From: Acidobacteriota bacterium
GTDB lineage: Bacteria; Acidobacteriota; Thermoanaerobaculia; Multivoradales; Multivoraceae
Length of the DNA: 64,000 nt
Reading direction: 5' to 3'
NCBI GenBank assembly: GCA_026707545.1
Contig: JAPOWR010000001.1
Coordinates: 1,329,778-1,393,777, forward strand
The notes under the pieces are model-generated. The model ran no database searches. It worked only from the letters and a program-made list of their open reading frames with translations, and had not been told where the DNA came from. Positions 3,501 to 53,729 of this stretch are shown here, in pieces. How positions within the stretch are numbered: the stretch's first letter is position 1; every line of letters starts with the position of its first letter. Both the position numbers and the translations under genes were made by a program.

Positions 3501-4805
3501 CTAGTCGATCGCGTCGTCGCCGCGGGCGTGCGCCAGCTCCCGCGCACTCGGATGCGCGGACGGACGGAAGGGCACCTCGCACACGCGCGCCTCGTCGGGT
3601 CGGCCCGGTACGGTGGCGTACTCGTCGGGCAGATGGACTTGCAGGCGCGTCCCCACCGCCGATCGATTCACCGGCACGTAGCCCAGGGCGATGTTGCCAC
3701 CCAGCTCCGGAGCGTGCCAGGGAGAGGTCAGGTAGCCGATCGGCTCGCCGCCGTTCGCGTCCGACACGAGCCAGAAGTCCGGCGCGTAGTCGTCGATCGG
3801 CCGGCCGCCCAGCGTCATGCCGACGAGAACCATGGAGAACGGGGGCCGGCCTGCAGCGATCTCGTCACGCATCCATTCGAGCGCCTTCCGGCCGACGTAG
3901 TCGCCCCTCTTCTTGCGCGGCACCTGGTAGGCCAGGTTGCACTGGAAGGGGGTCGTCTCGTGGTCCATGTCCTGTCCCCAGGAGAGGATGCCGGCCTGAA
4001 TGCGACGCTGATGGCCTGGCGCGGTCACCATGAGCCCGTGCCGCTCGCCCGCGCTCAGCACCGCGCTCCAGAGCTTCTCGGCGTGAAGCGTCGCATCCCG
4101 GAGGTAGATCTCGTAGCCCTTCTCGCCCGAGAAGCCAGTCTGGGAGATGACGACCGGGCAGTCCCCGATCCGTGCTTCGAGAAGACCGTAGTAGGGGATC
4201 CTCCGAATCCGCTCACCGACCAGGTCGACCATCAGCGCGCGAGACTTCGGTCCCTGAATCTGCAGCGGACAGACATCGATCTCGTCGATCTCCACGTCCA
4301 TCCGCATCCCGACGTTGACGCCCTGCAGCCAGAACAGGATGTCGGAATCCGCCAGCGAGAGCCAGAACTCGTCCTCAGACAGGCGCAGCAGGACCGGGTC
4401 GTTCAGGATCCCGCCTTTCTCGTTGCAGAGAATGACGTACTTGCCCCGCATTGGCTGGATGCGGGTGGCATCCCGCGTGATCACGTAGTCGATGAACCGC
4501 TCCGCCTCCGGTCCCTTGACCCGGATCTGCCGCTCGACCGCGACGTTCCACATCGTGACGTGCTTCGTCAGGGCCTCGTGCTCTACCGCTGCGCCGCCAT
4601 CCTCCATCCGCACGTAGCCGCGCGGATGATAGATGCGGTTGTAGATCGTGGCCCGCCAGCAGCCTGCCTGGTGCGACAGGTGCCAGTAGGGCGACTTTCG
4701 CACCCGGGTGGAAATCAGCAGCTCCACGGGCGTCGGGCCGCTCTGGCGCAGGTTGATCGGGACGATGCGGTCCGACTGGTCGACGCTGCGCGGCTGACCG
4801 CTCAT
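3501..4805 (-). CDS. GcvT-family aminomethyltransferase (folate-binding; DmdA/aminomethyltransferase-like)
   Basis: GcvT-fold similarity across the ORF. Start placed at the second Met of the ORF (MSGQPRS...), which has a strong SD (GAGGAGGAG) immediately upstream. This leaves a ~50-bp divergent intergenic region with the dimethylglycine-dehydrogenase-like gene. Confidence 0.75.
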   Translation of the reverse strand: MSGQPRSVDQSDRIVPINLRQSGPTPVELLISTRVRKSPYWHLSHQAGCWRATIYNRIYHPRGYVRMEDGGAAVEHEALTKHVTMWNVAVERQIRVKGPEAERFIDYVITRDATRIQPMRGKYVILCNEKGGILNDPVLLRLSEDEFWLSLADSDILFWLQGVNVGMRMDVEIDEIDVCPLQIQGPKSRALMVDLVGERIRRIPYYGLLEARIGDCPVVISQTGFSGEKGYEIYLRDATLHAEKLWSAVLSAGERHGLMVTAPGHQRRIQAGILSWGQDMDHETTPFQCNLAYQVPRKKRGDYVGRKALEWMRDEIAAGRPPFSMVLVGMTLGGRPIDDYAPDFWLVSDANGGEPIGYLTSPWHAPELGGNIALGYVPVNRSAVGTRLQVHLPDEYATVPGRPDEARVCEVPFRPSAHPSARELAHARGDDAID

Positions 4806-4855
4806 GGCTCCTCCTCTTCCGCCGAGCGTCTCGGCTACCATGACCTGCGGGATCG

Positions 4856-7411
4856 ATGACGGAAGTTACCACCGGAGAGGCCCCGCACAGCACGATTCCG
4901 GAACAGCCCGCACGCGCCAGGATCGCCGTCATCGGCGCCGGAATCGTCGGCAACAGCGTCGTCGGTCATCTGGCGAAACTCGGCTGGACGGACCTGGTGC
5001 TGATCGACAAGGGTCCACTGCCGAATCCGGGCGGATCGACCGGCCACGCGTCGAACTTCATCTTCCCCACGGATCACAACCGCGAGATCGCGCTGTTGAC
5101 CCTGGAGAGCCAGCGCCAGTACGCGGCCCTCGGCGTGAACATCTCCTGCGGCGGGATCGAGGTTGCCCGCAGCCGCGAGCGCATGGAAGAGCTGCGCCGC
5201 CGGATGACCTCGGCGCGAACCTGGGGCATCGAGGCCGAACTGCTGACTCCGGCCCAGGTCGTCGCCAAGGCGCCGTTCGTTAACGGCGAGGCCATTCTGG
5301 GCGGCTTCTACACTCCGGGGGCGTCGGTCGTGGATCCGGTCCGGGCCGCGACCCTCCTGCGCGAGCGGGCGAAGGCGCAAGGCGCCCTGACCGTGCTGGA
5401 GAACACGGAAGTGCTCGGCCTGGAGGTGGAGCCGCGGCCATTCCGCCGCCCCGCCATCGGCGCCGTCGTCACGTCGCGTGGCACGATCGAGGTCGAGCAC
5501 GTGGTCATCGCCTGCGGCGTCTGGAGTCCGCGCCTCGCCGCGATGGCCGGAGCGACGATTCCCCTGACGCCGGCCGTACACCAGATGGTCGACCTGGGAC
5601 CGATCGACCTCCTCCGAGAGACGGGCAAAGAGATCGCCTTCCCGATCGTGCGCGACATGGACACCTTCATGTACGAGAGGCAGAGACACGACGCGATGGA
5701 GATCGGCTCCTACGCCCACGAGCCGATTCTGGTGCCGCCCGACGACATTCCCTCGATCGCCGAAGCGGAGCGCACGCCAACCGAAATGCCCTTCACCGCG
5801 AAGCACTTCGCCCCACAACTCGGGCACGCCCGAGACCTGATGGGCGAACTGCTCGCCGGCGCCCGGATGCGGTACGCGGTGAACGGCCTACTGTCCCTGA
5901 CTCCCGACGCACAGCAGGTGCTGGGCGAGACCGCCGAAGTGGAGCGCCTCTGGTCGGCCGCATCGGTGTGGATCAAGGAGGGACCCGGCAGCGGACGCCT
6001 GATCGCCGAGTGGATCACCTACGGATACCCGCGCCTGTGCGACCCGCACGGATCGGATGTCACCCGCTTCCAGCCGCACGAACGGACACAGCGGCATATC
6101 CGGGAACGCTGCCGGGAGCACTTCAACAAGACCTACGGCATCGTCCACCCACGCGAGCAGTGGGAGTCGGCGCGCGGGGTCCACCGGGCGCCGTTCCACG
6201 ATCGGACGGCCGCCCTCGGCGCCGAGTTCCACGAGGCTCGCGGATGGGAGCGTCCCCAGTGGTACGCGTCGAACGAGGACCTCGTCGCGCGCTACGGCGT
6301 GTCGGACCGACCTTGTGAGTGGGATCGTCGCTGGTGGTCGCCGATCATCGACGCGGAGCACCTTCACCTGCGCGAGAAGGCGGGCATCGTCGACCTGAGC
6401 GCCTTTCAGATCTTCGACGTGTCGGGACCCGGCGTCGTTCCCTACCTGGAACGCCTGACGGTAAACCGCTGCGACCGTCCCGTGGGCCGATCGATCTACA
6501 CACCTCTCCTGACGCCCGAGGGCGGAATACGCGCCGACCTGACGATCCTGCGACTGGCCCACGATCGGTTTCGCATCGTCACCGGCGCACTGGACGGCGC
6601 CCGCGACAGGGTCTGGTTCCAGCGCCACCTTCCCGAGGACGGCTCCGTCCGGTTCGAGGACCGTTCCACCACCATGTGCACGATCGGCGTCTGGGGGCCG
6701 CGCGCCGAATCGCTTGTCGCCAGGATTGCCGATGTCCCCTGCTCGCAGGAGGCGTTCCCATACGGTACCGGACGGGAGGTGGTGATCGGCGGGAACCGGG
6801 CGACGATGCTCCGCATCTCCTACGTCGGCGAGAACGGCTGGGAGATCTACGCACCGATGTCCGACGGTGCCCACTTATGGGATGCGATCCGGGAGGCCGG
6901 CGACGACCTGGACGCCCGGCCGGTCGGAATCGGCGTCTACGGCACGACCGGCCGCCTGGAGAAGGGGTACGCCATGATGGGCGCCGACCTGACCTCGGAG
7001 TACTCCCCGGTGGAGGCCGGTCTGGCCCGGCCAGGCGTCAAGAAAGCGGACTTCATCGGCAAGGCGGCATACCTGGAAGCGCGCGCCGAGGGGCCAGCGG
7101 CCAAGCTGTGCACGCTGACGATCGACGATCCGGCCGACGGCTCCGGCAAACCTCGCTTCCCCACCGGCGGCAGCGAACCGATCCTCACGACAGGCGGAGA
7201 CCGCATCGTCGACGCCCGGGGGCGGGAGTCCCGCGTCACCTCCGCCGGCATGGGACCGTCCGTTGGCAGATACCTGCTGATGGCCTACCTGCCCATCGAG
7301 CATGCAACGCCCGGTGACCGGCTGCAGTTGCTCTACATGAACGAACGCTTCCCCGTGACGGTGGCCAGACGAACCATGTTCGATCCCGGGAACGCCCGGA
7401 TGAAGGCATAG
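4856..7411 (+). CDS. FAD-dependent oxidoreductase fused to a C-terminal GcvT aminomethyltransferase domain (dimethylglycine/sarcosine dehydrogenase family)
   Basis: 851 aa. N-terminal Rossmann motif IAVIGAGIVGNSVVGHLA (DAO-type). The C-terminal ~400 aa is a GcvT-like folate-binding domain. This architecture is typical of DMGDH/SarDH. Confidence 0.8.
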   Translation: MTEVTTGEAPHSTIPEQPARARIAVIGAGIVGNSVVGHLAKLGWTDLVLIDKGPLPNPGGSTGHASNFIFPTDHNREIALLTLESQRQYAALGVNISCGGIEVARSRERMEELRRRMTSARTWGIEAELLTPAQVVAKAPFVNGEAILGGFYTPGASVVDPVRAATLLRERAKAQGALTVLENTEVLGLEVEPRPFRRPAIGAVVTSRGTIEVEHVVIACGVWSPRLAAMAGATIPLTPAVHQMVDLGPIDLLRETGKEIAFPIVRDMDTFMYERQRHDAMEIGSYAHEPILVPPDDIPSIAEAERTPTEMPFTAKHFAPQLGHARDLMGELLAGARMRYAVNGLLSLTPDAQQVLGETAEVERLWSAASVWIKEGPGSGRLIAEWITYGYPRLCDPHGSDVTRFQPHERTQRHIRERCREHFNKTYGIVHPREQWESARGVHRAPFHDRTAALGAEFHEARGWERPQWYASNEDLVARYGVSDRPCEWDRRWWSPIIDAEHLHLREKAGIVDLSAFQIFDVSGPGVVPYLERLTVNRCDRPVGRSIYTPLLTPEGGIRADLTILRLAHDRFRIVTGALDGARDRVWFQRHLPEDGSVRFEDRSTTMCTIGVWGPRAESLVARIADVPCSQEAFPYGTGREVVIGGNRATMLRISYVGENGWEIYAPMSDGAHLWDAIREAGDDLDARPVGIGVYGTTGRLEKGYAMMGADLTSEYSPVEAGLARPGVKKADFIGKAAYLEARAEGPAAKLCTLTIDDPADGSGKPRFPTGGSEPILTTGGDRIVDARGRESRVTSAGMGPSVGRYLLMAYLPIEHATPGDRLQLLYMNERFPVTVARRTMFDPGNARMKA

Positions 7412-47201: not shown

Positions 47202-47827
47202 TGGCTGTCAAGAAGAGCGAAGCGGCGCTCGATCCCCTCTTCAACAATAATCCGATCGCGCTCCAGGTCCTAGGCATCTGCTCGGCGCTGGCGGTGACGA
47301 CGAAGATGGAGACCTCGGTCGTCATGTGCGCGGCCGTCATCGCCGTGCTCACCCTGTCGAACCTGACGATCAGCCTGCTCCGGCATCAGATCCCGAACAG
47401 CATCCGGATCATCGTCCAGTTGACCGTCATCGCATCGCTGGTCATCGTCACCGACCAGATCCTCAAGGCCTACGTGTTCGAGATCAGCAAGCAGCTCTCG
47501 GTGTTCGTCGGGCTGATCATCACGAACTGCATCATCATGGGGCGGGCGGAAGCCTTCGCGATGCAGAACCCGCCGTCCCTGGCCATCCTCGACGGCATCG
47601 GCAACGGCATCGGCTACAGCGCGATCCTGATGGTCACGGCGTTCCTGCGCGAGCTGTTCGGTTCCGGGAAGCTCTACGGCTACAGCGTTCTGCCCACGGT
47701 CTCGGAAGGAGGCTGGTACCTGCCGAACGGCCTGATGCTGCTGTCTCCCGCCGCCTTCTTCATCATCGGCGGATTGATCTGGGCGCTACGCGTGTACAAA
47801 CCCGCTCAAGTCGAGATGGACGGGTAA
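47201..47827 (+). CDS. nqrD: Na+-NQR subunit D
   Basis: 208 aa. NqrD/RnfE family, 6 TM. Confidence 0.9.
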
Positions 47828-47923
47828 GGAGGGACGCCATGCACAAGCGACGAAGCACTCCCCACGCGGCGCGTGTAGCCCTGCTCCTTGTTCAAGTCGA
47901 GATGGACGGCTAGGGAGGACGCC
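47807..47923. repeat. ~31-bp direct duplication of the nqrD 3' end plus Shine-Dalgarno (copy 1 at 47807..47838, copy 2 at 47893..47923), with a 54-bp spacer
   Basis: Two copies of CAAGTCGAGATGGACGG[G/C]TA[A]GGGAGGACGCC seen directly in the sequence. Copy 1 spans the nqrD stop; copy 2 lies immediately upstream of the nqrE ATG. Confidence 0.85.
47839..47913 (+). CDS. Candidate 24-aa micro-ORF MHKRRSTPHAARVALLLVQVEMDG between nqrD and nqrE
   Basis: ATG preceded by AAGGAGGGA at SD distance. Ends with the same QVEMDG-stop as NqrD. Not in the supplied ORF track as a separate entry. Translation unproven. Confidence 0.25.
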   Translation: MHKRRSTPHAARVALLLVQVEMDG

Positions 47924-47928
47924 GGACG

Positions 47929-48546
47929 ATGTTCGAGGACTACCTGAACCTGGCCGTGAAGGCCATCTTCATCGAGAACATGGCCCTGACCTTCTTCCTG
48001 GGCATGTGCTCCTTCCTGGCCGTGTCGAAGAAGGTCGAGACCGCGGTCGGCCTCGGCCTGGCGGTCATCTTCGTGCTCACCGTGACCGTGCCCGCGAACA
48101 ACCTGATCCAGACTTACCTCCTGAACGAGGGCGCTCTCGCCTGGATCAGCCCCGAGTTCGCCGGCGTCGACCTGACCTTCCTGAACCTGCTCTGCTTCAT
48201 CGGCACGATCGCGGCGATGGTCCAGCTCGTGGAAATGACGACCGACCGCTTCTTCCCCGCGCTGCACGCCACACTGGGCATCTTCCTGCCCCTGATCGCG
48301 GTGAACTGCGCCATCCTGGGGGGCTCCCTGTTCATGGTCGAACGGGACTACGACTTCGGGGAAAGCGTCGTCTTCGGCCTGGGCAACGGTATCGGCTGGT
48401 TCCTGGCCGTCGTCGCCCTGGCGTCCATCCGTGAGCGCCTGCGCTACAGCAACGTGCCCCACGGTCTGCGCGGCCTGGGCATGACCTTCGTCATCACCGG
48501 ACTGATGGCGTTCGGCTTCATGGCTTTCGGGGGCATCCAGTTGTGA
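47929..48546 (+). CDS. nqrE: Na+-NQR subunit E
   Basis: 205 aa. NqrE/RnfA family, 6 TM. Confidence 0.9.
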
Positions 48547-49760
48547 TCACCGTCGTCCTCGGGGTGACGATGTTCACCGTCGTCATCCTCGCCCTGGTCA
48601 CGGCCCTGATGCAGGCCAAGGCCCGGCTCGTCGCCGGCGGCGAGGTGTCGATCCTGATCAACGAGGAGAAGACGCTGGCCGCCGCGACCGGCGGCACCCT
48701 GCTCGGCACCCTGGCCGAGCACCAGATCTTCATCCCTTCCGCCTGCGGAGGCCAGGGCACGTGCGGCGTCTGCACGGTCGACGTGTTCGAGGGCGGTGGC
48801 GCCATGCTGCCGACCGAGAAGACGCACATCAGCCGCCGCGAGGCGCGCGAGGGCTGCCGCCTGAGCTGCCAGGTCAAGATCAAGGAGGACATGAAGATCG
48901 GCATCCCCGCCGAGGTCTTCGGGGTCAAGAAGTGGCAGTGCAAGGTGCGCTCGAACGAGAACGTCGCCACCTTCATCAAGGAACTCGTGCTGGAGCTGCC
49001 CGAAGGCGAGGAGGTGCCCTTCCGCGCCGGCGGCTACATCCAGATCGAGTGCCCGCCGCACGTGGTGAACTACAGCAACTTCGCCATCGAGGACGAGTAC
49101 CACGACGACTGGGACCGCTTCAAGATCTGGGACCTGGTGTCCAAAGTCGACGAGACCGTGATCCGGGCCTACTCGATGGCGAACTACCCCGACGAGAAGG
49201 GCGTCATCATGCTGAACGTGCGCGTGGCGACGCCGCCTCCCCGCCAGATGGACCTGCCGCCCGGTCAGATGTCCTCCTACATCTTCGACTTGAAGCCAGG
49301 CGACGAGGTGACGATCGCCGGCCCCTTCGGCGAGTTCTTCGCCAAGGACACGGACGCCGAGATGGTCTTCGTCGGCGGAGGCGCCGGCATGGCGCCCATG
49401 CGCTCCCACATCTTCGACCAGTTCCGACGCATCCACACGAACCGCAAGGTGTCCTTCTGGTACGGCGCCCGCTCCTACCGAGAGGCCTTCTACATCGACC
49501 ACTTCGACCGGATCGCCGAAGAGAACCCGAACTTCACCTGGCACCTCGCCCTCTCCGACCCACTCGAGGAAGACAACTGGGACGGCTACACCGGCTTCAT
49601 CCACCAGGTCCTATACGACAACTACCTGAAGGACCACCCCGCCCCGGAAGACGTCGAGTACTACCTCTGCGGCCCCCCCCTGATGCTCCAGGCCTGCATG
49701 AAGATGCTCGACGACCTCGGCGTCGAACCCGAGAACATCGCCTTCGACGACTTCGGCTAG
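48543..49760 (+). CDS. nqrF: Na+-NQR subunit F
   Basis: 405 aa. N-terminal TM, 2Fe-2S ferredoxin domain ([10 protein letters not shown]...C), FAD/NADH-binding ferredoxin-reductase-type domain. Confidence 0.9.
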
Positions 49761-49808
49761 GCCTGGCGATGCGCTGCGGGCGCGGGGCGTTGGTGGCACC
49801 CGCCAGGC

Positions 49809-49971
49809 GCGGGTCCGGGGGGAGGGGTCCCAGGTGCCGTTCGCGCTTGGTCGGAAGATGTAAGGGGGTGCGCTCACTGCACTCCGCTCGCTTCGGTCAG
49901 GCACCGGTTGCCGTGATGGCGCCGGCCGTCGCTCGCTCCGAGCCACCTGGGACCCCTCCCCCCGGACCCGC
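49809..49971. repeat. Palindromic repetitive element, copy 1 (28-bp perfect inverted-repeat arms at 49809..49836 and 49944..49971, 107-nt loop)
   Basis: Arms GCGGGTCCGGGGGGAGGGGTCCCAGGTG / CACCTGGGACCCCTCCCCCCGGACCCGC are exact reverse complements. Sits between nqrF and apbE. Confidence 0.8.
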
Positions 49972-50050
49972 ACCTGGCTGGACGTCGTCGAGCTGTCGCA
50001 TCGCACCGTCGGCACCGAAGTCGTCTCGGTCGAAGCGGGGATGGCGACCA

Positions 50051-51109
50051 GGCTGGCCGGTGTTGGCAGTCCTCGCTGGCCTCACGATCGGCTGTGGGCA
50101 GGCATCTGAGGAGCTCGTGCTGCAGGGGCCGACGATGGGCACCTACTATCGGGTGCGCGCCATTGCGGACTCGGGTGATCGCGAGACGATTCGGGCTCTG
50201 GTCCAGCAACGGTTGGATGCGGTTGACCGCAGGATGTCGACCTACCGGGACGACTCGGAGATCTCTCGCTTCAATCGGCTCGCGGCCGGCGAGTCCTTCG
50301 TGTTCGCAGAGGAAACCTGGGCAGTCCTGGAACTCGCCTGGCGGGTGCGCGAGGAGAGCAACGGTGCGTTCGACCCAACAGTGGGGCCCCTCGTCGACGC
50401 CTGGGGCTTCGGTGCGCCCGGACGCGGTGCGGAGCCGACACCTCCTCTCGATGATCGCCTAGTGGAGCTACGTCGGGCGGTGGGCTCGATCGAGCTGGCA
50501 TCTGAGGGCCACCGAGTTCTCAAGCTCGAAGACGGAGCAGCTCTCGACTTATCCGCTATCGCCAAGGGTTGGGCAGTCGATAGCGTTTCCGAGGCTCTGC
50601 TCAAAGCCGGTTACACCAATCACCTCGTAGAGGTCGGCGGCGAGGTGCGCACCACCGGAAGTAGCCCAGCGGGCGACCCGTGGCGCATCGCGATTGAACG
50701 GCCACCCGTTCGAGTGACCGATCCCGCGCCAACAAGCGCCCCGGCAACCACAACGGCGGAGGCCCCAAAAGCCGGGCTCCAGAGGGTTCTCCTCTTCACC
50801 GACGGATCCCTGGCGACCTCGGGCGACTACCGAAACTACTGGGAGCGTGATGGCGTCCGCTACTCCCACACGATCGACCCCCGCACGGGACGGCCCGTTG
50901 AACACGCCCTTGCCTCGACCAGCGTGTTCCACACCAGCTGCGCCGTGGCCGACGCCTACGCCACCGCCCTGATGGTCCTCGGCCCCGAGGACGGCCTGGA
51001 GTGGGCGGACGAGAACGACATCGCCGCCCTGCTCCTTGTCTACCGCGAGGACTCACTCGAAGAACTCCCGAGCCGCGCTTTTCGCAACCGGTTCGGACCC
51101 GCCGAGTAG
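50051..51109 (+). CDS. apbE: FAD:protein FMN transferase ApbE (flavin-trafficking, Na+-NQR maturation)
   Basis: ApbE-family conservation over ~350 aa. Putative lipobox LAGLTIGC. In-frame start is GTG 50051 or TTG 50054. An out-of-frame ATG at 50032 would supply a better signal peptide. Confidence 0.8.
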   Translation, partial: GWPVLAVLAGLTIGCGQASEELVLQGPTMGTYYRVRAIADSGDRETIRALVQQRLDAVDRRMSTYRDDSEISRFNRLAAGESFVFAEETWAVLELAWRVREESNGAFDPTVGPLVDAWGFGAPGRGAEPTPPLDDRLVELRRAVGSIELASEGHRVLKLEDGAALDLSAIAKGWAVDSVSEALLKAGYTNHLVEVGGEVRTTGSSPAGDPWRIAIERPPVRVTDPAPTSAPATTTAEAPKAGLQRVLLFTDGSLATSGDYRNYWERDGVRYSHTIDPRTGRPVEHALASTSVFHTSCAVADAYATALMVLGPEDGLEWADENDIAALLLVYREDSLEELPSRAFRNRFGPAE

Positions 51110-51133
51110 CGGGCAGCCCGACGCCGTCCAGCC

Positions 51134-51309
51134 GGTCCGGGGCTCCGTGGGGGGAGGGGTCCCAGCGGACTCGAAGCGAGCGACGCCCGGCGACCCTCTG
51201 CCGACTGACAACGAACCGGAGCGAGCGTAGTGGAGTGCGCGCAGTCCTCCCATCCTCTCAGAGAGCGCGCACGGCCGCTGGGACCCTTCCCCCCACGGAA
51301 CCCCGGACC
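51134..51309. repeat. Palindromic repetitive element, copy 2 (inverted-repeat arms ~35 bp at 51134..51168 and 51275..51309, 2 mismatches), inverted relative to copy 1
   Basis: Arms share the GGTCCGGGG...GGGGGAGGGGTCCCAG core with copy 1. Internal segments (AGCGAGCGACG, GAGCGAGCG.AGTG) match the reverse complement of copy 1's interior. Confidence 0.75.
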
Positions 51310-51357
51310 AGGCGGGTGCTCTCCTCCGCCCCGCGCCGGTAGACTCGCCTGTGAGTC

Positions 51358-51540
51358 ATGGCGGTCCTGTTTCTCACGATTACTGTCATCGCCGCTTCGG
51401 TGATTCTCATGGCGGTCGGCGTGCTGTTGAGCGGGCGCTGCCTGCGAGGGTCCTGCGGGGGTCCCGATGTGCTCGGGCCCGATGGTGAGCCGCTGAGTTG
51501 CTCCAACTGCCCGCTGCGCCGTGCGCGGGAGGAGACCTGA
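51358..51540 (+). CDS. nqrM: Probable (Na+)-NQR maturation factor NqrM (DUF539-like small Cys-rich membrane protein)
   Basis: 60 aa. One N-terminal TM (LFLTITVIAASVILMAVGVLL), then CLRGSCGG...CSNC. NqrM is known to follow apbE in nqr loci. Confidence 0.55.
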   Translation: MAVLFLTITVIAASVILMAVGVLLSGRCLRGSCGGPDVLGPDGEPLSCSNCPLRRAREET

Positions 51541-53729
51541 TCGTCACCGAGGGCGCCACCGAGCGCCCGATCCAGATCACTCACCACGGCGAGACGCAGC
51601 CGTTCTCCCGCGGGTTGCTCGCCCGCAGCCTCTACGCTGCCGGACTCGACTTCGACCGGGCCTACCGTCGGGTGGAGCAACTGCAGCGACAGTTGCAGCA
51701 CGAAGGCACGACCAGCCTCGAGAAGCGGCGTCTCGTACGGCGGATCGCCGACTTTCTGGACACGGAAGAGGGCTCAGACACCGCCGGTCGCTACCGGCTG
51801 ATCCGGCGCCTGCGGCGGCTGCCCAAACCCCTGATCCTCTACATCGGCGGCGCCGGCGGCACAGGGAAATCGACGCTGGCCCTCGACCTGGCGCCGCAAC
51901 TCCGCATCTACCGGATCAACGCCACCGACACCGTGCGTCAGGTGATGCGGATGGTGTTCGCGCCGGCGATTCTGCCGGCGCTTCACGTCTCGAGCTATGA
52001 GGCGGCAACGGACCCTTCCGCCGAACTTGCCGCGGGAGCCGCGAATCCACAACTCGCCACGCTCGAAGAGCAGGCGACCAGGGTATGCGTCGGCGTGCGG
52101 GCCGTGGTCGAAAGGGCGATCGCCGAGAACATCAGCCTCGTGGTCGAGGGAGTCCACCTCTCGCCCGGACTGGTTCCCTTCACCGACCTGGAGGGAGAGG
52201 CGTATCAGTTCTTCGTCGTTCTCTCCACCCCGGACGAGGAGGTTCATCGGAGTCACTTTCTGGCGCGCGAGACCTTCGACGGCCGGAAGTCGAGCCGGCA
52301 CCTGGATCACTTCACGGTGATTCGCGAACAGCAGGACCGCCTCCTGCACCTGGCCGGAGAGGCCGACATCCCCATCCTGGACACGACGGACCGCGAACAA
52401 TCGCTCTCGGCGGCCATCGCCCTGCTCGGACAGAGCCTCTCCCAGCGACTTCCCTGGCTGACCCAGGCATCGGTCGAGTCGCTCGGCGAACGACGCACGC
52501 CGGCTCTGCTCCTGGTGATCGACGGATTACCCGACCGGCCCCTGCGCTCGCTCGGTGCACGGACGCCCCTGGAGGCCGCCCGCACCCCGACTCTCGACCG
52601 GCTAGCCAGGGAAGGCGTCTGCGGTCTGGCCGACCCGGTGGCACCGGGCGTCGTTCCGGATACGGCCTCGGGCAACCTCGCCCTGTTCGCGCAGTCACCG
52701 CGGGTGATGACGCGTGGACCGATCGAGGCGCTCGGCGCCGGCCTCAAGCTGAAGGCGGGCACGATCGCCATTCGGGGCAACTTCGCCACCCTCGATGAAC
52801 GCGGCAGCGTCGTCGACCGCCGCGCCGGCCGCATCCGCGAGGACGCGAAGAAGCTGGCGAAGGCGATCGACAAGCTGGACCTTCCCGCTTCCGATCGGGT
52901 CAAGGTGCGCGTGCGGGCAACGACCGAGCATCGGCTCGCGATCACGCTGCGCGGAGGCGGGCTGACTTCGGCCATCCAGGGCTCCGACCCGGGCGAGGGG
53001 GCTCCGTCCGGGCCGCCCCTGGCGCCGCGACCCCTCGATCCCAACGACGACAGCGCCGAGCGAACCGCCCGTGTCCTCGCCCTGTTCGAACAGGAGGCCC
53101 GCCGGGTCCTGGCCCGGCACCCGGTCAATGAGAAACGCCTGGAGAACGGAAAGCTGGCGGCCAACGCCGTCCTCACCCGGGGCGTGGGCCGGGTCCACCG
53201 CCTGCTTCCCCTGGAACCCGGCGGGTTGCCGCTCGAAGCTGCCTGCGTCGGCGGCGACCGCACCGTGATGGGGATCGCCTCGGCGCTCGGCGCTTCCGTG
53301 ATCCGCCGCCGCGGCATGACCGCGAACGTGGATACGGACCTCTCGCTCAAGTTCGACTGCGCCCTGGAGGCGCTCGAGGAGCACGACCTGGTGATGGTCC
53401 ACGTCAAGGGCGCCGACATCGCCGCCCACGACCGCCGCCCCGATCTGAAGGTCGCCTTCCTGGAACGGCTCGACCGCGAACTGGGGACCCTGCTCGACCG
53501 GCTGGAGCAACCCGTCCGGGTCGCCGTGACGGCCGATCACGCCACCCTGTCTGAACTGGGCGCGCATGGCGCCGATCCCGTGCCGGTGCTGATCTGGGGT
53601 GAGGGGATCGCACCGGACGGCGTGACAAGTTACGGCGAGCGCGCCGCGGGAACCGGCAGGTTGAATCGGTTCCCGCTCCAGCTCCTGATCGAGCGTCTCT
53701 TCGAGCAGCACGGCAGCGAGACGATCTGA
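51498..53729 (+). CDS. Fusion protein: ATP-cone + 2-phosphoglycerate-kinase-like P-loop kinase + archaeal-type cofactor-independent phosphoglycerate mutase (ApgM-like) domain
   Basis: 743-aa ORF. ATP-cone-like segment PIQITHHGETQPFSRGLLARSL. P-loop LILYIGGAGGTGKST with a 2PGK-like kinase body. C-terminal ~400 aa with the ApgM pattern LLLVIDGLPDRP...TPLEAARTPTLDRLAREG. First codon of the ORF is TTG at 51498, overlapping nqrM by 43 nt. True start uncertain (an in-frame CTG at 51535 is an alternative). Confidence 0.6.
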   Translation: MLQLPAAPCAGGDLIVTEGATERPIQITHHGETQPFSRGLLARSLYAAGLDFDRAYRRVEQLQRQLQHEGTTSLEKRRLVRRIADFLDTEEGSDTAGRYRLIRRLRRLPKPLILYIGGAGGTGKSTLALDLAPQLRIYRINATDTVRQVMRMVFAPAILPALHVSSYEAATDPSAELAAGAANPQLATLEEQATRVCVGVRAVVERAIAENISLVVEGVHLSPGLVPFTDLEGEAYQFFVVLSTPDEEVHRSHFLARETFDGRKSSRHLDHFTVIREQQDRLLHLAGEADIPILDTTDREQSLSAAIALLGQSLSQRLPWLTQASVESLGERRTPALLLVIDGLPDRPLRSLGARTPLEAARTPTLDRLAREGVCGLADPVAPGVVPDTASGNLALFAQSPRVMTRGPIEALGAGLKLKAGTIAIRGNFATLDERGSVVDRRAGRIREDAKKLAKAIDKLDLPASDRVKVRVRATTEHRLAITLRGGGLTSAIQGSDPGEGAPSGPPLAPRPLDPNDDSAERTARVLALFEQEARRVLARHPVNEKRLENGKLAANAVLTRGVGRVHRLLPLEPGGLPLEAACVGGDRTVMGIASALGASVIRRRGMTANVDTDLSLKFDCALEALEEHDLVMVHVKGADIAAHDRRPDLKVAFLERLDRELGTLLDRLEQPVRVAVTADHATLSELGAHGADPVPVLIWGEGIAPDGVTSYGERAAGTGRLNRFPLQLLIERLFEQHGSETI

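Follow-up and report, generated by a model that had tools for sequence, protein, structure and literature searches.

Within a 64,000-nucleotide stretch of an Acidobacteriota genome (Thermoanaerobaculia, Multivoraceae; assembly GCA_026707545.1, contig JAPOWR010000001.1, positions 1,329,778 to 1,393,777 of the forward strand; hereafter the window), the gene apbE of the Na+-NQR (nqr) operon is bracketed by two oppositely oriented copies of a palindromic repeat of approximately 215 bp, named E here. E is a previously undescribed family of non-coding palindromic repeats, found only in one clade of uncultured Acidobacteriota: there are approximately 40 full copies at approximately 20 independent loci, all in Thermoanaerobaculia-type Acidobacteriota metagenome-assembled genomes (MAGs). 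The stem of E is kept by selection on pairing, through compensatory changes. Comparison with related genomes indicates that the two nqr copies were inserted separately into the ends of an apbE gene that was already part of the operon, and that both are now under purifying selection; it may be that they act through their hairpins. Taken as a whole, this explanation (an undescribed family, separate insertions, selection and a hairpin-based role) is the one favored here, with a probability of approximately 0.5.

The features of the two copies are given below in window positions; divergence is per site among nqr orthologues, and R1 is a covariance model built from 27 aligned copies of E.

49785..49997, + strand: element E copy 1 (R1 score 205.9 bits, E-value 9e-42; nhmmer match 49793-49989; the full model has 212 positions)
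49797..49804, + strand: outer-end motif of copy 1, CACCCGCC, at the stem base; near-invariant among the 27 aligned copies
49799..49836, + strand: left arm of copy 1 (inverted repeat I3, 38 nt, 95% complementary; divergence 0.058)
49837..49943, + strand: central 107-nt region of copy 1, with P2, block A, hypervariable spacer and block B
49839-49846 with 49870-49877, + strand: P2, a small palindrome in copy 1 with modest covariation support
49870-49897, + strand: conserved block A of copy 1 (divergence 0.071)
49898-49925, + strand: hypervariable spacer of copy 1 (divergence 0.414)
49926-49943, + strand: conserved block B of copy 1 (divergence 0.094)
49944..49981, + strand: right arm of copy 1 (inverted repeat I3; divergence 0.032)
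49976..49990, + strand: inner-end motif of copy 1, GGCTGGACGTCGTCG, the conserved 3' block of the family alignment
51112..51330, - strand: element E copy 2 (R1 score 169.9 bits, E-value 2.6e-34), running opposite to copy 1 and to nqr transcription
51134..51168, + strand: left (inner-side) arm of copy 2 (inverted repeat I4, 35 nt, 94% complementary; divergence 0.056-0.069)
51275..51309, + strand: right (outer-side) arm of copy 2 (inverted repeat I4; divergence 0.072-0.081)

A first-pass annotation of this DNA had described two long hairpins, and both are present with exactly the arms and loops it gave. The inner 28 nt of the copy 1 arms (49809-49836 and 49944-49971) pair perfectly around a 107-nt loop, and the copy 2 arms are complementary at 33 of 35 positions around a 106-nt loop. 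Its extent of approximately 170 bp describes palindromes that are indeed there, but the conserved unit is longer, approximately 212 nt at both nqr sites, spanning the CACCCGCC motif to GGCTGGACGGCGTCGG. The 17-mer arm core, GGGGGGAGGGGTCCCAG, occurs four times in the window, once in each arm, against an expectation of 0.73; none of 100 shuffled sequences reaches four. The similarity and opposite orientation of the copies are likewise upheld: copy 1 on the plus strand and copy 2 on the minus strand can be aligned over approximately 200 nt including flanks, with 69% identity in the core, and covariance-model scores on the opposite strands fall to 51 and 30 bits, versus 206 and 170 bits on their own. 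The two copies are by far the strongest hairpins in the window. RNA folding, as that annotation had proposed, gives very stable structures of -140.6 kcal/mol (z = -7.9) for copy 1 and -126.4 kcal/mol (z = -5.0) for copy 2, and the two strands are equivalent when folded under DNA parameters (-72 to -74 kcal/mol).

The family was delimited by a scan for the exact 17-mer in one genome per species, which gave 77 loci, followed by BLAST and nhmmer searches. Approximately 25 of the 77 are full-length (approximately 200 nt) homologues of E, all in Acidobacteriota MAGs that carry the names Holophagales, Thermoanaerobaculia, Candidatus Multivorans (classed within Thermoanaerobaculia) or plain Acidobacteria. 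Judged from names only, many of the E-bearing isolates look like members of marine sponge and coral MAG series. Core matches in Streptomyces, Synechococcus, archaea and others proved to be chance 17-mers with no element around them, as did the lone arm core at L061, which lies in an AT-rich context (L-numbers denote compared loci in related genomes and metagenomes). Scanning metagenomes with a loop-to-arm motif brought in 15 further loci; no exact core was found in viral contigs. True copies score 150-212 bits with R1 on one strand and 25-57 bits on the other, and in the window the model finds the two nqr copies only. Representative genomes have one to three exact-core loci each. A single 1.4-Mb contig has copies at approximately 48, 296 and 1392 kb, and the family is therefore dispersed and low in copy number. 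No Rfam 15 family matches the window at its gathering threshold, and up to E = 10 there are chance-level matches only, of which mir-940 (21 bits against a threshold of 106 bits) is typical; a literature search for E in sponge Acidobacteria found no description. The proposal of a REP/MITE-like genome repeat family (REP, repetitive extragenic palindrome; MITE, miniature inverted-repeat transposable element) is thus borne out by full-length homologues at approximately 20 non-homologous loci with stable hairpins on either strand; the search with the arm core finds further copies within the clade, and not the isolated pair that would have spoken for chance similarity.

In the family alignment, E consists of the outer motif CACCCGCC, an interrupted stem with approximately 33 counted base pairs, a central region, the second arm and the inner motif GGCTGGACGGCGTCGG. 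The central region is 105-107 nt long in all 27 aligned copies and comprises P2 beside the stem, two conserved blocks, each with CGCTCGCTCCG, at a separation of approximately 44 nt, and a spacer of constant length and hypervariable sequence. RNAalifold predicts the long stem, and 21 of its 45 pairs have changed on both sides with pairing kept. In the named structure 94.7% of cells are paired versus 85.2% in shuffled alignments, and there are 21 compensated pairs versus 13.6; none of 500 shuffles reaches the observed values. When the partner register is slid by one to three columns, pairing falls to 39-56%. In one copy, L065b, seven arm-core positions have changed and are fully compensated on the other arm. 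Read on the model strand, the stem cells comprise 810 Watson-Crick pairs, 24 G-U, 19 A-C and 35 other combinations. Within P2, the pair at alignment columns 69 and 105 is UA in 17 copies, CG in 10 and broken in none. Two further helices were considered and rejected: loop helix 7 (columns 120-127 with 165-173) is not above shuffles (71 of 500), and an alternative hairpin P2' (GGGGTGC/GCACTCC) is only 67.7% paired. Single-sequence folds of the loop are heterogeneous, and the arms of E (35-45 nt) do not fold alone.

The nqr locus itself can be followed in seven other MAGs and one metagenome contig (L082) at 85-96% nucleotide identity. Copy 1 is full in L007, L028, L045, L018, L036 and L082 and truncated in L016, L049 and L093; copy 2 is present in L007, L028 and L016, the last of which is 98.6% identical to the window copy. 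For copy 1, divergence per site is 0.03-0.06 in the arms and 0.07-0.09 in the loop blocks, compared with 0.41 in the loop spacer and 0.28-0.31 in the flanking spacer. For copy 2 the corresponding values are 0.06-0.08, 0.03-0.04, 0.41 and 0.30-0.34, so that a copy inverted relative to transcription yields the same conservation map. Divergence at 4-fold degenerate sites is 0.18 in nqrF and 0.34 in apbE, and in both copies the arms and the two loop blocks evolve 3-10 times more slowly than these sites or the flanking spacer. These rates point firmly to purifying selection on the stem and the two loop blocks of the resident copies, in both orientations. Locus-specific arm variants are stably inherited among orthologues, and homogenization among copies is therefore not the cause of the conservation. 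Template-directed repair of one arm from the other is also insufficient, since it would preserve complementarity but would not slow evolution. The stem mismatches show no excess of G-U over A-C, which indicates that the constraint is strand-symmetric.

The genes around the copies, in the order nqrA-F, apbE and an NqrM-like open reading frame (ORF), supply the landmarks for the history of the locus.

48543..49760, + strand: nqrF (Pfam Fer2, FAD_binding_6 and NAD_binding_1; homologues 90-97% identical)
49769..51109, + strand: apbE ORF in its longest conserved form (Pfam ApbE, E-value 7.9e-83), from an ATG at 49769 that lies 8 nt past the nqrF stop
51338..51346, + strand: GGTAGACTC, relic of the ancestral apbE stop (TAG at 51340-51342) and apbE-nqrM junction according to alignment with L093, downstream of copy 2
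51358..51540, + strand: nqrM-like ORF of 60 aa (Pfam NqrM at E-value 0.0039, below threshold, plus a GSCGG motif)

The nqrF stop is 24 nt from the start of the R1 match of copy 1 and 36 nt from its CACCCGCC outer-end motif. At the other side, the ATG of the nqrM-like ORF, which is conserved in L007, L016, L028, L049 and L093, is 28 nt from the end of the R1 match of copy 2 and 38 nt from its outer-end motif GGCGGGTG.

A comparison of nqrF-apbE junctions in relatives, which the first-pass annotation had called for, finds apbE in place without E. In two relatives with 78-79% NqrF identity (L094 and L095), apbE follows 15-89 nt past nqrF and E is undetectable even with filters off. The gap is 15 nt in L094, where a 72-aa ORF with no Pfam match occupies the nqrM position and overlaps the apbE stop by 4 nt. 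A closer relative, L093 (NqrF identity 90%), retains the first 30 or so nucleotides of copy 1 (CACCCGCCTGGCGCGGGTCCGGTGGGAGG), fused to apbE signal-peptide codons, and has no trace of copy 2; its apbE stop (GCTAGACTC) is followed 12 nt on by the nqrM ATG. The presence of a copy 1 remnant without copy 2 implies that the copies arrived separately, copy 1 first. The ancestral string GGTAGACTC...ATG is retained in the window at 51338-51360, 3' of copy 2, which identifies copy 2 as an insertion of approximately 237 nt a few bases before the old stop. With this insertion ApbE acquired a new tail, PAE-stop, and now ends in ...RFGPAE-stop instead of ...RFGS-stop. Partners of every pair in the family share only 61-69% identity, whereas copy 1 shares 79-82% with copies elsewhere. 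On this alignment evidence, apbE is ancestral in the operon, copy 1 was inserted at its 5' end in the signal-peptide region, and copy 2 was inserted later in inverted orientation. The suggestion that the pair is a footprint of apbE acquisition therefore fails, as relatives without E keep nqrF, apbE and nqrM abutting and the two copies differ in their time of arrival and share just 69% identity. The pair as an inversion substrate fares no better: apbE has the same orientation in 8 of 8 orthologous loci. It is correct that apbE is enclosed between nqrF and nqrM, but the copies sit within the ends of the ancestral apbE ORF and not in older spacers.

Presence and absence of E differ between close genomes in three comparisons: L078a with L042 (97% identical flanks), L004c with L087 (95%) and copy 2 of the window with L093. 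The indels are approximately 240-290 nt, and no consistent target-site duplication is found across the three. L078 and L042 differ by a unit with an 11-nt or so flanking direct repeat, which is equally compatible with deletion between repeats; the indel of approximately 290 nt between L004c and L087 has no duplication, and the junctions of copy 2 relative to L093 share CGG only. The GGCGTCGG-like strings at both ends of E were rejected as duplications, as they do not co-vary within copies in the alignment and are therefore consensus. Independent deletions, frequently at microhomologies, have also removed hairpins from L016, L049 (where both copies are affected), L008, L042 and L093. L049 and L008 were discarded as clean empty sites, since they are deletion derivatives that keep the inner terminus. 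At copy 1, three independent deletions with different breakpoints (L016 4926-5005, L049 2273-2392 and L093 5253-5300) remove the right half of the element and the spacer up to the ApbE signal-peptide codons, at least two of them in frame with the upstream ATG. In L018, synteny ends inside the 3' end of apbE at approximately 3290 (window position approximately 51073), with neither copy 2 nor nqrM beyond; a 1081-aa ORF on the other strand follows, and the rearrangement lies approximately where copy 2 would be. Another ORF end reshaped by E is seen at L004 4105-4298, where, compared with L087 at approximately 1928-1953, the element goes with a rewritten N-terminus of a mevalonate-kinase-like gene (VLPVTGGTEAT... 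versus MADTES...). At L084, two same-strand partial E segments (65-116 and 4804-4986; identical to L092) flank a 4.7-kb segment of low third-position G+C content (GC3), and may be a single E copy split by insertion. The segment includes an ORF that we take, by eye and without a Pfam check, to resemble an IS1595/ISXO2-type transposase.

Several copies of E hold an insert of approximately 68 nt, always between ...CCCAGGTGCC and GTTCGCGC... at the top of the stem. This insert is a separate repeat family, named F here, of approximately 68-85 nt with two tandem GC hairpins, CCGTGCGCCCG-NNNN-CGGGCGCACGG and GGTGGCGCG-GATC-GCGCCACC. F occurs at exactly the same stem/loop junction in at least three different E loci, and it also abuts the inner ends of E and occurs alone. 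It is not present in the window. F is found in L010 and is absent from its approximately 95%-identical orthologue L080, a difference which implies recent, site-specific movement. Its copies are as follows.

L010: 6999-7072
L035: 5162-5231
L022: 3180-3249 and 701-773
L087: 4428-4498, 4656-4760 and 6331-6412
L086: 11150-11232
L078: 738-814
L084: 113-174

The placement of E relative to genes was assessed with gene calls from a GC3-based caller of our own, which is heuristic at the related loci. Nearly all copies lie between convergent or co-directional genes, with no confidently placed copy between divergent genes. The CACCCGCC outer end is 8-60 nt past a stop codon in approximately 18 of the 21 independent loci; nqr copy 2, the copy on the idi side of moaA-idi, and L087a are exceptions and turn this end toward the beginning of the following gene. 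In tandem gene contexts E is in sense orientation 9 times and in antisense 2-3 times. Two copies occur together at six independent loci (nqr, moaA-idi, a TPR-gene locus, L065, L078 and L081), and all six pairs are in (+,-) arrangement with outer ends outward, a result with a probability of 0.25^6 under random orientation and of 1/64 if only inverted pairs persist. At four of the six, the flanking genes are convergent and each has its own copy behind it, and the polarity of those four is simply explained by each copy being in sense orientation behind a gene. What the pairs enclose is diverse: ApbE, a TPR protein, FolE with a PTPS-like protein, unknown proteins, and in one case 143 bp of nothing. 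At moaA-idi the enclosed content differs in three related genomes, with one small ORF in L004 (949-1463), two paralogous small ORFs and a DUF7387/HicB-like ORF in L087 (4656-6433), and in L022 (666-3023) a 476-aa ORF with 59% GC and no Pfam match. No enclosed segment recurs in a second genomic context among the loci compared.

A separate question concerns the start of ApbE and whether copy 1 is translated. Copy 1 contains no stop in the apbE frame as far back as the ATG at 49769, and all 6 full-length orthologues share both this ATG and the uninterrupted frame. Between orthologues, the stretch upstream of the copy 1 arm differs in length by +3 or +6 nt, and the deletion derivatives L016 (-204 nt) and L049 (-156 nt) are independent and both in frame, fusing MR..VAPARRGSGGRGPRCRS to the hydrophobic segment and lipobox. 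The chance probability of at least four such in-frame events is approximately 1%, and the untranslated outer flank of copy 2, unlike the upstream region of copy 1, has indels of 1, 4 and 10 nt. Against translation, the apbE frame is also stop-free in 13 of 21 E copies elsewhere, and there is no third-position excess across copy 1; by comparison, the signal-peptide and mature regions downstream of it diverge by 0.35 at codon position 3 and by 0.09-0.12 at positions 1 and 2. No amino-acid-level selection on the copy 1 peptide was detected, nor is there a conserved ORF or a codon-position signal within E. In-frame translation of copy 1, as an insert of approximately 87 codons within the ApbE lipoprotein signal peptide, is therefore possible but somewhat doubtful. 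If it does occur, cleavage at the lipobox cysteine would remove the signal peptide that holds the extra codons, which would account for the tolerance of the insertion.

The ApbE start is ambiguous between the ATG at 49769 and a GTG at 50060, directly before the lipobox LTIGC, which would yield MLAVLAGLTIGC, without a charged N-region. An ATG at 50041 was considered as a start disrupted by a sequencing error or frameshift, and this was rejected, as the ATG has the same out-of-frame relation in all orthologues. In L045 and L018, an in-frame ATG (TCGATGTGG; window region 50033-50063) gives a classic lipoprotein signal peptide, and the corresponding position is AAG in the window, L007, L028 and L036.

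Elsewhere in the neighborhood, a 743-aa ORF with phosphoglycerate-mutase/metalloenzyme domains (51498-53729) overlaps the end of nqrM by approximately 40 nt when read from its listed start, TTG 51498; its real start is probably further downstream. At the nqrD-nqrE junction (47806-47891), 86 nt that comprise the 3' end of nqrD and the ribosome-binding region of nqrE are locally duplicated, which is not the case in L007, L028, L045 or L016. The duplication creates a 24-codon ORF (approximately 47839-47913; MHKRRSTPHAARVALLLVQVEMDG-stop) with GGAGGG upstream and the same terminal residues as NqrD. In L093 (3159-3368) the same junction is present in three tandem copies with a period of approximately 94 nt and a similar small ORF.

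As to function, a transcript-level role is favored, tentatively and at somewhat less than even odds: the stems may serve as barriers or as sites of processing, so that ApbE is uncoupled from NqrA-F and NqrM. Both copies lie inside the nqrA-F-apbE-nqrM transcription unit, and each would place a very stable stem in the mRNA. Such a stem could block 3' exonucleases and could be a target of RNase III, and that of copy 1 might also be a brake on ribosomes entering apbE. The outcome would be that the amount of the maturation enzyme ApbE is set apart from that of the structural subunits NqrA-F and from that of NqrM. A stem would function in either orientation, which under this model explains why the inverted copy 2 is equally conserved. 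The placement of E, its RNA stability, its sense bias (9 versus 2-3) and known precedents fit a role of this kind. Several observations weigh against it. RNA structures normally show more G-U than A-C among stem mismatches, and E has no such excess (24 G-U, 19 A-C and 35 other; re-tallied by transcribed strand, approximately 17 G-U versus 26 A-C). The unpaired loop blocks are as conserved in the antisense copy 2 as in copy 1, and a single-strand RNA motif therefore cannot explain them. A consensus scan finds no sigma-70 promoter or intrinsic terminator at or after either copy; with no U-tract past either hairpin and no promoter after copy 2, the hairpins are not canonical terminators, and copy 1 could not be a terminator if it is translated. 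The gene calls behind the placement data are also heuristic. A Rho site was considered and set aside, as the central region overall lacks C-over-G skew and only block A is C-rich.

The same strand symmetry would be expected if E acted as DNA, with a hairpin or cruciform whose loop blocks are contacted by a protein of the host or of transposase type; located at transcription-unit ends, such a site could have an architectural, topological or recombination function. Models would be BIMEs that bind gyrase or IHF, and REP/REPIN hairpins bound by RAYT/HUH enzymes. Such a role is the main rival of the transcript-level one and nearly as likely. Much of the anatomy suits it: the conservation map does not depend on orientation relative to transcription, the length of the central region is fixed at 105-107 nt despite its hypervariable spacer, with the CGCTCGCTCCG blocks at a constant spacing of approximately 44 nt, and both DNA strands fold equally well. 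The insertion of F at one stem/loop junction in at least three E loci implies that some enzyme recognizes E DNA, and the shared polarity of 6 of 6 independent pairs suggests a DNA-level rule. On the other side, no partner protein has been identified, and the block motif is not enriched outside E (8 matches versus 12.8 expected). A dimeric protein on a double-stranded palindrome would not tolerate compensatory arm changes such as those of L065b, and recognition would therefore have to be of structure; the preference for sites just past stop codons would need a separate explanation. A narrower version, in which E copies are structure-specific DNA sites that mark the edges of small gene modules with the outer end out, is improbable. 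It draws on the six (+,-) pairs, on the variable content at moaA-idi and on the insertion of F, which implies a hairpin-recognizing enzyme. If it were true, E would be a new kind of module-bounding or recombination site, pdif- or attC-like but unrelated, and apbE would lie in one such module.

Alternatively, E could be a selfish or neutral relic, a decaying, non-autonomous MITE/REPIN-like element with no host function, whose conservation reflects gene conversion among copies or template-directed repair between arms. The presence/absence differences between 95-97%-identical genomes (L078 versus L042; L004 versus L087), the at least five independent hairpin deletions (L016, L049 twice, L008, L042 and L093), the low copy number and the lack of a shared function among enclosed genes would all suit a relic. 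It is nonetheless quite unlikely, given that locus-specific arm variants show that the copies are not homogenized, that arm repair would not lower the substitution rate of arms that evolve 3-10 times more slowly than neutral proxies, and that the unpaired loop blocks are conserved too. Least probable by far is that the pair forms the ends of a composite mobile cassette that delivered apbE, or bounds an invertible apbE segment. The inverted arrangement around exactly one gene invites this idea, as do the three different contents of the moaA-idi pair and the GC3 of apbE (0.76, versus 0.90-0.96 in nqrA-F), but nqrM (0.79) and the next gene (0.85) are also lower in GC3. With apbE at the same position in relatives without E and in one orientation throughout, copies of 69% identity inserted at different times, and no enclosed segment in a second context, both ideas are essentially refuted for the nqr locus.

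E is best described as a bacterial palindromic intergenic repeat that is REP/REPIN- and ERIC-like in form and distribution but fails defining features of each class: its units are not of the GTAG/CGTC type, it lacks a regular target-site duplication and a known transposase, and its copy number is apparently very low. REPs are located downstream of ORFs near stop codons, between co-directional or convergent genes, and those of the CGTC family have stems of 8-9 bp and loops of 4-5 nt (PMC3733652). Like E, REP dimers (REPINs and BIMEs; PMC3733652, PMC3116915) consist of two inverted arms and a spacer of conserved length that form one large hairpin. They also resemble E in their position near stop codons downstream of co-directional or convergent ORFs, in vertical persistence, in occasional insertion into ORF termini where they supply a stop codon, and in their proposed roles in mRNA stability, termination or supercoiling. 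However, a REP unit is a 20-40-bp imperfect palindrome with a GTAG/CGTC tag, whereas the arms of E are approximately 35-45 nt and are not stem-loops of 5-13 bp. E has no GTAG tag, and although CGTC occurs near the stem base on both strands, the geometry of the CGTC family is absent. The 105-107-nt spacer with conserved internal blocks is a further difference, as is the apparently very low copy number, with two copies in the window and at most three exact-core loci in any representative genome, compared with tens to hundreds of REPs per genome. Arms of E approximately 0.5-1 kb apart around a transposase are not found among the 77 exact-core loci, with no genome-wide RAYT/TIRYT search made.

ERIC/RU- and Correia-type MITEs are 100-170-bp imperfect palindromes in transcribed intergenic DNA (PMC2229807, PMC2759123, PMC10969869). 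E matches them in size class, in its long imperfect palindrome, in low to moderate copy number, in insertion at transcribed sites, intergenic or intragenic, in either orientation and in presence/absence polymorphism, and it has the terminal inverted repeats without coding capacity, and the polymorphism at orthologous sites in close relatives, by which MITEs are recognized. It differs in lacking a clear fixed-length target-site duplication (a direct repeat flanks one filled/empty pair, and the other two have none), in being extremely GC-rich, in its purifying selection and compensatory evolution, and in the consistently outward polarity of its pairs. No autonomous insertion sequence with E-type ends was seen in the compared loci. 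Effects on mRNA processing and stability are reported for MITEs of the ERIC/RU and Correia types.

Like Rickettsia palindromic elements (RPE) and intragenic REPs (PMC1950309, PMC3733652), E can lie in a protein-coding gene without destroying it: copy 1 follows a conserved ATG and precedes the lipobox of ApbE, with the frame kept, and copy 2 took the place of the final codon or codons and provides the stop. Unlike an RPE, copy 1, if translated, would be in a cleaved signal peptide and not in the mature protein, and it shows no amino-acid-level constraint. Intercistronic stabilizer hairpins include the malE-malF REP in E. coli and the puf operon hairpins in Rhodobacter. As at the nqr locus, these are very stable stems between cistrons needed in different amounts (here structural versus maturation proteins), but they are much shorter and their function has been shown experimentally, whereas E is known from sequence and its constraint is strand-symmetric. 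An analogy with pdif modules and integron cassettes lies in small gene modules bounded by inverted, structure-forming sites, with variable content at one locus (moaA-idi) that includes a HicB-like ORF. In contrast to pdif and attC, no recombinase has been found for E, and there is no R''/R' core (RYYYAAC / GTTRRRY) and no Xer-type 28-bp site. The ends of E are CACCCGCC and GGCTGGACGGCGTCGG, its pairs are inverted and no integrase lies beside the nqr locus, unlike integron cassettes; unlike pdif modules, no module occurs in two contexts and the nqr copies arrived separately.

Palindromic repeats are usually catalogued and are rarely shown to be constrained, while E, with orthologues in at least six species in addition to paralogues, shows both compensation in the stem and a slowdown in substitution. 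The nqr locus is thus well suited to studying whether elements of this type work at the RNA or at the DNA level. Instead of having delivered apbE, the inverted pair is the record of two separate insertions, one at each extremity of an essential maturation gene, of which one may have been tolerated because of its location in a cleaved signal peptide. The hairpins of E cause deletions and probably also assembly and annotation errors in these MAGs, including uncertain ApbE starts, and the covariance model R1 can be used to mask or annotate them. Finally, the nesting of F within E offers a lead on a still-active, hairpin-specific mobilization activity in an uncultured symbiont clade.

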